A stretch of 25,157 bases of DNA. Source: an uncultured Candidatus Saccharibacteria bacterium (GTDB taxonomy: Bacteria; Patescibacteriota; Minisyncoccia; Phycocordibacterales; CAIRYW01). A program made the translations under genes and the position numbers. Location of the stretch: NCBI GenBank assembly GCA_964540495.1, contig CAZIMQ010000001.1:1-25157 (forward strand), read 5' to 3'. Under the pieces are notes generated by a model. It worked only from the letters and a program-made list of their open reading frames with translations. It was not told the origin of the DNA and made no database searches. Within the stretch, counting starts at the first letter, position 1; every line of letters starts with the position of its first letter. This document shows positions 10,800-12,002 of this stretch, piece by piece.

Positions 10800-10835
10800 G
10801 AATTTACCTTGGCAATTATATGCCAAGGTAAATTC
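10800..10835. promoter_or_regulatory. Perfect 15-bp inverted repeat (terminator or operator) with a TATAAT in the loop
   Basis: gaatttaccttggca-attata-tgccaaggtaaattc. On the minus strand the loop reads TATAAT, with TTTACT 16 nt upstream. It ends 10 nt before the ATG at 10789. Confidence 0.7.
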
Positions 10836-11638
10836 TAGTAAACCGAAACCTCATTGTGAACTAAAGCAGTTCCTGTGGTTTTATAGTATCTCAGGTTCAC
10901 GGTTGTATGGTTTACGACCAAAGCATTTGAGCGTGTTGCAATGGTTCCCATTGCTAAGTATTGGGAAGCTGTCCTTGTAGCTCGCTCTACTCGTAGTCCT
11001 GCAGACATTTGAGGATTAATTTTGTCGTACATTGCTTTTCGCATGATTGCTTCACACTCCAATTTACTAAGTGCCTGAGCCTCCTTTAGTTTTTCACTAA
11101 AAAGATGTTCCAAGGCTGTAATTTCTGGTGCAAAGGTAGTCATTTTGCTTGCTCGCCATCCCCTTGCTTCAAATTGCTCTCTCATTGTTTGAAGAGAAGA
11201 GGTAATAAGATGGTCAAATTCTTCTTTTGTTTTTCTAATTGCTTGGCGAATCAAGACATCTTCGGATTCTTGATCTGCAATTAAAAATTCAACTGAAAGA
11301 GGAAGAATTTTTTCAAGTCTTCTTACAAACATTGCGTGTTTTAAAGCAAGAAGAGAAATCCCCCCATTTAACCCTCTGAAGTCATACTTTCCATCTTCAT
11401 GAGTATAGTCCGGACATACCGGTACTATAGTTAGTGGAACTTTTTGATGAAGAAGAATTTGTGCAACACAAATTAAAATTTGTCGCGAGTGCGTGGCCTC
11501 TCCAGATATAGAAGCAATTTCTTTTAGCATTGAAATTACTTCTGAAGAACCGCGTACACATGCAGTTTTTCTTTCTTCATCAGAAGCAAACTTTCCTATA
11601 CGCTTCCAATCAATACTTAGTATATCTTTAGTGTTCAT
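10835..11638 (-). CDS. Orphan 267-aa alpha/beta protein under T-box control; putative class Ic aaRS-like / CDPS-like aminoacyl-tRNA-related enzyme
   Basis: The ORF is clear and the function is inferred. Motifs: IVPVCPDY, EFLIADQE, QFEARGWRA, RTASQYLAMG, LVVNHTTVN, ALVHNEV. It lies 43 nt downstream of a T-box terminator. Confidence 0.6.
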   Translation of the reverse strand: MNTKDILSIDWKRIGKFASDEERKTACVRGSSEVISMLKEIASISGEATHSRQILICVAQILLHQKVPLTIVPVCPDYTHEDGKYDFRGLNGGISLLALKHAMFVRRLEKILPLSVEFLIADQESEDVLIRQAIRKTKEEFDHLITSSLQTMREQFEARGWRASKMTTFAPEITALEHLFSEKLKEAQALSKLECEAIMRKAMYDKINPQMSAGLRVERATRTASQYLAMGTIATRSNALVVNHTTVNLRYYKTTGTALVHNEVSVY

Positions 11639-11681
11639 TGTGTAGTTTTTGGTTTATGGTTTTAAAGAACAGATTTAAGAC

Positions 11682-11967
11682 AAAAGAAAAAACTCCTTGT
11701 CTCTTCATGCGAAAAATCGCAAAAAGGGACGAGAAGTCTTTTGTTACTCGTGGTGCCACCCTAATTTAAAAACTAGTATTTACCTAGTTTTTCTCACCAG
11801 CTTTATGCATTTTGCCAACACTGGTTTTCTCTATAACGGGAGAACCCGGATTTCCACGAGGACTTTTGTCTTTGCAGAAACCATCTTTTGTGTTTTAGAC
11901 AATACTCAAGGCCCAATCTCACAGAACTTTTTGCTCGTGAGACCTTGAAAGATGTTATTTCGATCTA
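11682..11967 (-). ncRNA. T-box riboswitch leader (transcription-attenuation type)
   Basis: T-box sequence AAAUUAGGG-UGGCACC-ACGAG (11747-11767) pairs with CUCGUCCCU (11725-11733) as the antiterminator. An overlapping terminator (11692-11737) has a U-tract (11682-11691). Stem III is aaaaactag/ctagttttt (11768-11792). The stem IIA/B pseudoknot is CGGG-UUCU-CCCG-UUA-UAG-AGAA (11827-11848). Confidence 0.92.
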
Positions 11968-11973
11968 TAGGTA

Positions 11974-12002
11974 ATCATACATTGATTCACAACAAAAATC
12001 AA
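11974..12002 (-). promoter_or_regulatory. sigma70 promoter driving the T-box leader
   Basis: TTGATT (11997-12002)-17 nt-TATGAT (11974-11979), positioned immediately 5' of the structured leader. Confidence 0.75.

Follow-up and report, generated by a model that had tools for sequence, protein, structure and literature searches.

The window analysed here is a 25,157-nucleotide (nt) stretch of DNA from an uncultured Candidatus Saccharibacteria bacterium (assembly GCA_964540495.1, contig CAZIMQ010000001.1, positions 1 to 25,157), and its minus strand carries an RNA leader followed by two protein genes, which we call X and Y. The leader spans about 12002 to 11639 and has the anatomy of a T-box riboswitch; X lies immediately beyond it, and Y beyond X (Table 1). 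The same layout, with DnaK-DnaJ on one side and Maf on the other, is found in a metagenome-assembled genome of the Patescibacteria (locus L075), in the order DnaK-DnaJ, T-box, X, Y, Maf. A search of sequencing runs recovered the stretch only in DNA metagenomes and in one marginal RNA run.

Table 1. Features of the leader and of genes X and Y (positions are those of the window)
Feature	Position	Strand	Basis or remark
Promoter-like site (TTGATT, 17 nt, TATGAT)	11974..12002	-	9/12 consensus matches
Stem I, truncated	11883..11953	-	folding and comparison of leaders
Specifier UGG (Trp)	11913..11915	-	in 5-nt 3' bulge UUGGG (11916-11912), purine G next
Stem II (GGUUUC.../...GGAAAUC)	11849..11882	-	cmscan alignment to RF00230
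Stem IIA/B pseudoknot (CGGG-UUCUC-CCG ... GAGAA)	11827..11848	-	cmscan and covariation
Stem III hairpin	11768..11792	-	cmscan alignment to RF00230
T-box sequence and antiterminator, AAAUUAGGGUGGCACCACGAG...CUCGUCCCU	11725..11767	-	cmscan, folding
Intrinsic terminator, competing with the antiterminator; shares CUUCUCGUCCCUU	11682..11740	-	RNAfold
Gene X, 267 residues	10835..11638	-	open reading frame; class-Ic aminoacyl-tRNA synthetase-like Rossmann protein by model
15-bp hairpin then T-rich run, in the X-Y spacer (45 nt)	10800..10835	-	perfect-looking hairpin
Gene Y, 190 residues	10217..10789	-	histidine-phosphatase branch 1 fold, no nucleophilic His

RF00230, the Rfam covariance model of the T-box, matches the minus strand of the window at 11722-11931 over the full length of the model, with a score of 53.6 bits and an E-value of 5.7e-11 for the region. 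When the whole 716-kb assembly is searched the E-value is 1.7e-11, the best of two T-box matches. A preliminary description, made from the sequence alone, had proposed a T-box at this place; all the T-box elements that it listed are present where it put them, on the minus strand, and the covariance search agrees with it, though at a score that lies below the Rfam gathering score, as discussed below.

Does this leader belong to gene X, or was it left behind by a displaced aminoacyl-tRNA synthetase (aaRS) gene, as the preliminary description considered possible? The same leader is found 5' of genes for proteins that are 90, 89, 79 and 47% identical to X (L075, L004, L001 and L002), and T-box matches lie directly upstream of distant homologs as well, whose identities to X are 34-42% (individually 42%, 41% and 34%). 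The scores of these distant leaders against RF00230 are 57.4 bits for the L019/L020 lineage, 36.6 for L034 and 26.5 for L018, and the leaders of L004, L001, L002, L019, L034, L018 and L075 all match the model or carry the T-box motif. Since T-box leaders accompany homologs down to 34% identity, chance is excluded, and since they precede homologs in five diverged lineages, the leader is not the relic of a displaced aaRS gene. From this comparison of sequences we conclude that the window leader is a genuine T-box, the predicted and conserved regulator of gene X.

The order of elements can be followed from the 5' end. A TTGATT/TATGAT pair does exist at the place where the preliminary description saw a promoter, and its position is kept in leaders of relatives 79-90% identical in protein sequence, but promoter-like sites in the region are no commoner than in shuffled sequences. 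Stem I starts further upstream than the cmscan alignment puts it, and is built from a base helix (AUCUUU/AAAGAU), a lower helix (CAAGG/CCUUG) and an upper hairpin (UCUCAC...GUGAGA), which across the leaders ranges in length from 4 to 10 bp and has loops unrelated to one another. In the IIA/B element the pairing of loop to tail covaries from leader to leader (UUCUC/GAGAA, UCCU/AGGA, UUCCC/GGGAA, GCCU/AGGC). The core of the T-box and antiterminator, AGGGUGGCACCACGAG...CUCGUCCCU at 11762-11725, has a 7-nt bulge with UGGC at 11758-11755, complementary to the GCCA-3' end of tRNA-Trp. The terminator conformation re-uses CUCGUCCCU, the 3' half of the antiterminator, and has a computed energy of -29.9 kcal/mol (RNAfold); it ends in a U-run at about 11682, 43 nt 5' of the ATG of X at 11638. 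Counterpart terminators are present in the leaders of L002, L034, L018 and L019. Before the ATG of X, in the A/C-rich region 11639-11670 of the minus strand, no Shine-Dalgarno-like sequence was found, whereas X homologs such as those at L055 and L038 have GGAG-type sites.

Which tRNA does the leader read? In canonical T-boxes the specifier triplet lies in the 3' strand of Stem I, immediately above the lower helix, and the base after it is a purine. In the window that position is occupied by a bulge containing UGG, and the bulge reads (U/A)UGGG in all five lineages. The helices that flank it have kept their pairing and changed their sequence: CAAGG/CCUUG in the window, UAGG/CCUA in L002, GCAUG/CAUGC in L034, GCGUA/UACGC in L019 and CGUGG/CCUCG in L018. 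MAFFT misaligned Stem I, so that these covarying pairs were picked out by eye and compared with computed folds; minimum-free-energy folds of the Stem I segments from the five lineages leave UGG unpaired in the bulge. Because UGG and its purine stand at the canonical position, the specifier is taken to be UGG, for tryptophan. The long 3' loop of the window's Stem I (11906-11889) offers other triplets (AAC, CAC/AGC, ACA/CAG), which were considered as specifiers and rejected, since they vary between relatives that are 89% identical.

The 3' end of the tRNA gives a second reading. The tRNA-Trp(CCA) of the same genome, on contig C18, has the discriminator base G73 that fits the UGGC bulge, just as the preliminary description had read UGGC as implying G73. 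Its list of candidates from that reading was Ser, Trp, Asn, Asp and Gln; with the UGG specifier, Trp stands and the other four fall away. Other T-boxes point in the same direction. Two in genomes of the same class (loci L064 and L065, genomes G501 and G475) have AUUGGG in the loop of an ultrashort Stem I hairpin together with UGGC, one before a gene for TrpB (TIGR00263, 635 bits) and the other before a glutamine amidotransferase-type (GATase) gene and a TrpD-type gene. At L034 a single T-box stands 5' of X, Y and then tryptophanyl-tRNA synthetase (TrpRS, TIGR00233). The assignment of the window T-box to tRNA-Trp is thus well supported by comparison of sequences; the anatomy of the RNA, its conservation and its covariation are read directly from the leaders and their folds.

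Most X homologs have no T-box, and these show other signs of control by tryptophan. Among 31 non-redundant X loci with enough upstream sequence, 15 have a short open reading frame (8-45 codons, within 300 nt upstream) that contains tandem Trp codons, as against 1.6% in base-order shuffles and 2 of the 31 in the reverse complement. The predicted leader peptides include ...NSWWPTRNS..., ...SSWWW... and ...VVWWW..., and, in a second genome of the class that carries X (G438, 98% complete), ...INWWSS...; the TGGTGG lies 86-176 nt upstream of the X homolog, and is usually followed by a hairpin with a T-run. Two of these regions give weak matches to the Rfam Trp_leader model (E 0.03 and 0.08). In the manner of the trpL/TrpR control of Escherichia coli, these homologs combine a tandem-Trp reading frame of 16-30 codons with a terminator, and some have a TrpR-family neighbour. 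The likeness belongs to the X homologs and not to the window, and the genes controlled are X-Y, with or without trpS, and not trpEDCBA. TrpR-family genes (PF01371) adjoin X in six loci; none was found in the window's own genome or in G438, so this gene is not a ubiquitous neighbour. In four loci trpS (TIGR00233) lies directly downstream of X-Y. The sequences therefore suggest that T-boxes and leader-peptide attenuators control the X family in different lineages, with TrpR-family genes adjoining it elsewhere. Leader-peptide attenuation of the trpL type is best known from Proteobacteria and Actinobacteria; the trpL-like attenuators seen here include some in Patescibacteria-type genomes (L021-L049, and L055 on contig C2 of G438, of the same class as the window).

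Gene X had been called an orphan in the preliminary description, which holds in so far as it has no match among Pfam, NCBIfam or PDB sequences, and nothing meaningful in PADLOC or PHROGs. It is not an orphan in the sense of standing alone, since an exhaustive HMMER search finds relatives in 131 representative clusters at 50% identity, mostly of 255-270 residues, and X heads a conserved two-gene module. Longer remote relatives have extra parts without a Pfam domain, and one remote relative, at L008, again forms an X-Y pair. The public records name these relatives only as "hypothetical protein", and we found no description of the family in the literature. Its conserved motifs are PxCPDYxH (73-80), ADQE (121-124), RTxRTAAQY (219-227), NHTTxNL (243-249) and LHNP (260-263), with Cys75 and Tyr227 invariant in the family alignment.

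A model of X built with AlphaFold2 has a mean confidence (predicted local distance difference test, pLDDT) of 96.6. Its best structural neighbours are the catalytic domains of tyrosyl-tRNA synthetase (TyrRS), with Z 11.4-11.9, then cyclodipeptide synthases (CDPSs; Z 10-10.8), TrpRS (Z 8.5-10.2) and the isonitrile synthase PvcA (Z 8.8), the TyrRS and TrpRS matches extending over about 150-205 residues; Foldseek and ESM Atlas searches return the same set of neighbours, with PIsnA among the Foldseek matches. On the strength of this model, X is predicted to have the Rossmann catalytic-core fold of class-Ic aaRSs, close to Tyr/TrpRS. The hidden Markov models PF00579, trpS and tyrS do not match X, and neither HIGH nor KMSKS occurs in the consensus of 66 family sequences. 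In the model Cys75 stands at the end of the first Rossmann strand, two residues after Pro73 (P73-V-C75). In the CDPSs the acyl-accepting Ser37 is likewise two residues after a strand-end glycine, Gly35, and the S37C variant forms a thioester (PMC3105412).

Gene Y follows X in about 30 of 40 metagenomic loci. Its match to Pfam His_Phos_1 is just above the cut-off (21.9 against 21.7 bits), its structural model has a pLDDT of 97.2, and the nearest structures are phosphoserine phosphatases (Foldseek E 2e-5), CobC and PhoE. Like these branch 1 histidine phosphatases (iPSP, CobC, PhoE), Y has the fold, the active-site Arg, the Glu and the second His; unlike them, it has I-K-x in place of the RHG motif, which rules out a phospho-histidine intermediate. 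All 19-25 aligned homologs have x-I-K-x-x-x-Y in their N-terminal strand, and K7, R58, E79, R102 and H145 are invariant. The retention of Arg, Glu and His without the RHG histidine therefore indicates an anion pocket that lacks a nucleophile. Where Y is absent, at L028, L042, L043, L050 and L052, a convergent gene for an APH-family phosphotransferase (PF01636) lies just downstream of X, a hint that a phosphorylated compound may be involved.

The genome itself narrows the choice of function. A search for trpB found none in the window's own genome or in G438, and a normal TrpRS gene occurs in each of them; in the former it is the one PF00579 gene, at C81:1166-2116. X is therefore not one of the enzymes of the classical pathway, and it does not stand in for a lost synthetase. 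A role in de novo synthesis was rejected on the first ground. A missing synthetase of the predicted specificity, as the preliminary description had envisaged, was rejected on the second, because TrpRS is present; no TyrRS was found in the own assembly (116 contigs, 91% complete), which probably reflects an assembly gap, G438 having both TrpRS and TyrRS, and is in any case irrelevant to a switch that does not read Tyr. Some genomes of the class, those with L064 and L065, have kept trp genes under T-box control, and in these the specifier lies in the terminal loop of a bare Stem I hairpin.

In the T-box family, tRNA binding is known to lead to read-through, and by analogy the window leader would work as follows. 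When tryptophan is scarce, the anticodon CCA of uncharged tRNA-Trp would pair with the UGG bulge (11915-11913) of the truncated Stem I, and its free GCCA end with the UGGC (11758-11755) of the antiterminator. The antiterminator would then be stabilised and the terminator (11740-11682) blocked, allowing RNA polymerase to read into X and probably Y. For the proteins, we propose that X would bind tryptophan, or a tryptophanyl ester or amide, in its synthetase-like pocket; that Cys75 may act on the tryptophanyl carbonyl and so free tryptophan, or hand it over, from a scavenged conjugate; and that Y may hold the anionic (phosphate) part of the substrate. The released tryptophan would let a Trp-auxotrophic cell keep its tRNA-Trp charged. 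We are fairly confident of the picture as a whole, namely a Trp-specific transcriptional T-box in front of a conserved tryptophan-starvation module, in which X possibly frees tryptophan with Y as the phosphate holder. That the module is a hitherto undescribed part of the tryptophan-starvation response is very likely, and the expectation of the preliminary description that X is induced by amino-acid starvation is independently backed by the trpL-type leader peptides, the TrpR-family neighbours and the co-operonic trpS of the homologs. The more exact proposal, that X takes part in small-molecule tryptophan salvage of the kind just outlined, is one that we favour only tentatively.

Several observations weigh against this account, both on the RNA and on the protein side. 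The 53.6 bits of the window leader are under the curated 93-bit gathering score of RF00230, and a default search of the window at that score gives no match, the T-box being visible only in E-value mode. The shortfall arises from the truncation of Stem I, which has 30 nt where the model has 85, and cmscan has to treat about 55 nt of the model's Stem I as a deletion. Of 151 genomes sampled from the class, 17 have T-box matches at E ≤ 1e-6, and only one of these is above the Rfam cut-off. A variant with truncated Stem I appears to be typical of this class. No AG bulge or distal-loop platform could be recognised in Stem I of the window, nor a clear kink-turn, although a kink-turn-like AUGA...GA is present in the leaders of L002 and L019. 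The L019/L020 lineage has UGGU in place of UGGC, which predicts a tRNA-Trp with A73 there. As to the proteins, the functional clue for X is similarity at the level of the fold: no relevant Pfam family matches any of the 66 family members, an hhalign comparison of the X family with a TrpRS alignment is insignificant (probability 4.8%), and the correspondence of Cys75 to the CDPS nucleophile is inferred from its position after strand 1 and from comparison of motifs. X occurs in 2 of the 401 genomes sampled in the class, and beyond the class the phylum sample holds only remote relatives; this rarity makes it an accessory module and not a core one. X occurs without Y at several loci and in G438. 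The strong hairpin and T-run between X and Y leave co-transcription of Y uncertain; expression of Y may depend only in part on the T-box, or the hairpin may serve to stabilise the mRNA of X. Three promoter-like sites overlap the same spacer hairpin. Finally, X and Y are not consistently basic, which is weakly against binding of tRNA.

Could X act on tRNA nevertheless? The preliminary description inferred a role in tRNA charging, editing or the use of aminoacyl-tRNA, which would be an alternative to small-molecule salvage; a tRNA-linked reaction of some kind is possible, though on the unlikely side. In its most specific form X would resemble the CDPSs, accepting the aminoacyl group of an aminoacyl-tRNA on Cys75, and would serve in trans-editing of mischarged tRNA-Trp or as a tryptophanyl/aminoacyl transferase when tryptophan is scarce. 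There are points of likeness. CDPSs (AlbC, Rv2275, YvmC; PF16715) are stand-alone class-Ic aaRS-like Rossmann domains of about 230-290 residues, are among the best fold matches of X both by Z-score (10-10.8) and in Foldseek, have no ATP motifs and carry a nucleophile-capable residue right after the first strand; the invariant Cys75 would, by its place in the secondary structure, correspond to Ser37, whose cysteine variant forms the thioester (PMC3105412), and X is co-operonic with trpS in four loci. The conserved residues of the CDPSs are the G-x-S nucleophile after the first strand and Y178, E182, P184 and Y202 in AlbC numbering (PMC3105412). X has no match to the PF16715 profile, has Cys for Ser in its own motif PxCPDYxH and carries three additional N-terminal helices, and neither the helix motif Y-x3-E-x-P nor counterparts of Y178, E182 and P184 were identified in it. 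The direction of control is also the opposite of what would be expected, since CDPSs use charged tRNA and there would be little sense in switching on an enzyme that uses up Trp-tRNA in response to the uncharged form. Given as well that the protein is not consistently basic, we think a CDPS-type function rather unlikely.

A bolder reading would have X form an ATP-free tryptophanyl thioester on Cys75 and pass the tryptophan on, either straight to tRNA-Trp, as a way to make or repair Trp-tRNA-Trp independently of the synthetase, or out of a scavenged tryptophanyl conjugate, with Y as a non-hydrolytic phosphate-binding subunit. We regard this as improbable; if true, it would give ultra-small auxotrophs a previously unknown route to their scarcest amino acid. 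The third group with the superfold of X, the isonitrile synthases IsnA, PvcA and DIT1 (PF05141), bind Trp or Tyr together with a sugar phosphate, according to passages of PMC7949033, and this substrate recalls the phosphate-binding partner Y. PF05141 does not match X or its 66 relatives, and enzymes that turn tryptophan into secondary metabolites fit poorly with induction on tryptophan shortage.

The remaining explanations fare worse. The X-Y module might protect the cell from a natural inhibitor of TrpRS or a tryptophan analogue, being induced because such compounds make uncharged tRNA-Trp accumulate. An accessory-like, sporadic distribution (2 of 401 genomes in the class), cassettes with their own trpS and a control that responds to uncharged tRNA-Trp would all suit such a role. 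TrpR-family neighbours and trpL-type attenuators are, however, the classic controls of genes for tryptophan supply, the surroundings of the X loci gave no sign of mobile elements or resistance, and PADLOC and PHROGs gave no match, leaving protection very improbable. That X, alone or together with Y, is a reduced enzyme that activates tryptophan with ATP, serving as a back-up or high-affinity TrpRS, is more improbable still: X shares its predicted fold with the Tyr/TrpRS catalytic core, the control is Trp-specific, and A-D-Q-E after the second strand loosely recalls the A-D-x-H of TrpRS at the corresponding strand, but X lacks HIGH, KMSKS and an anticodon-binding domain, none of the PF00579, trpS and tyrS models matches it, the hhalign probability is as low as given above, and a normal TrpRS is already present in both genomes. 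A T-box that has decayed and no longer regulates, or that responds to a different tRNA (for example tRNA-Ser by way of UCC, or tRNA-Asn by way of AAC, in the 3' loop of Stem I), is scarcely credible in spite of the low Rfam score, the atypical Stem I and the other triplets in the loop at 11906-11889, because all functional elements are intact and kept down to 34% protein identity, UGG alone is conserved in the register-defining bulge, the loop triplets differ between 89%-identical relatives (ACA against CAG), and leaders with Trp codons replace the T-box in other X homologs.

Salvage of tryptophan under a Trp-specific T-box thus remains our preferred reading, and the RNA that governs it has known relatives. 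The preliminary description had suggested a new tRNA-responsive system; what is found is a truncated-Stem-I variant of the ordinary T-box, of a kind that in the same class also precedes trpB and trpG/trpD-like genes. The RNA is a variant of a known T-box and it is the cargo, X-Y, that is new. Canonical T-boxes (RF00230; Bacillus subtilis tyrS and glyQS) share with it the T-box sequence, the 7-nt bulge with UGGN, the competing terminator, a specifier and purine on the 3' side, Stem II, the IIA/B pseudoknot and Stem III. The window differs from them in that its Stem I is a hairpin with a 5-nt bulge, in which the S-turn of the specifier loop was not recognised, and in that its cargo falls outside the aaRS, biosynthesis and transporter genes.

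A closer parallel for the Stem I lies in the actinobacterial ileS T-boxes, which are said to have an ultrashort Stem I, reportedly from work by Sherwood and colleagues in 2015 and from structures of the Mycobacterium tuberculosis ileS element in 2019. They are translational, acting by sequestration of the Shine-Dalgarno sequence, and read Ile, whereas the window leader is transcriptional, with a terminator and U-run, and reads Trp. Both have a Stem I without the distal region that binds the tRNA elbow, and both keep Stem II and IIA/B, presumably in compensation. The T-boxes of L064 and L065, with UGG in the terminal loop, have this as a further likeness to the ileS elements. For the cargo there is a parallel in the rtpA (anti-TRAP) operon of B. 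subtilis, whose T-box, according to passages of PMC10327191, responds to uncharged tRNA-Trp; there too, as far as that account goes, the gene under a Trp T-box codes for something other than an aaRS or an enzyme of biosynthesis. The two products differ, anti-TRAP being a small zinc protein by which TRAP is titrated, whereas X is an enzyme-like Rossmann protein and implies no TRAP system.

Few amino-acid sensors are better understood than T-boxes, trpL attenuators and TrpR, and the genes that they govern are taken to be known (synthetases, biosynthesis genes, transporters and a small number of regulators). Here two of these systems, together with adjoining TrpR-family genes, converge on a single gene pair not described before, in genomes that yielded no trpB. 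The X family thereby gains a testable physiological label, tryptophan starvation, and, if the model is right, X would be a fourth branch of the class-Ic synthetase-like fold, beside the aaRSs, CDPSs and isonitrile synthases. For the Patescibacteria the comparison points both to Trp T-boxes with truncated Stem I that fall below the Rfam cut-off and to classic leader-peptide attenuation.

Some minor observations concern the rest of the genome. The only other T-box match in the assembly (C68:2757-2959, minus strand, locus L006; 33.8 bits, with a UGGC bulge) precedes a gene for a non-discriminating aspartyl-tRNA synthetase, aspartate--tRNA(Asn) ligase (NF003483, 500 bits), and ARAGORN found no genes for tRNA-Asp or tRNA-Asn in the 91%-complete assembly. 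The tRNAs that ARAGORN did report at C94:2064-2137, C75:1581-1654 and C48:4726-4813 include unusual anticodons. One, with anticodon UUA ('Stop'), has an acceptor stem resembling that of tRNA-Lys(CUU) and could be a tRNA-Lys(UUU) called with a shift of one base, or else a suppressor tRNA; the others are tRNA-Ile(UAU) and tRNA-Ser(ACU), both with anticodons unusual for bacteria.

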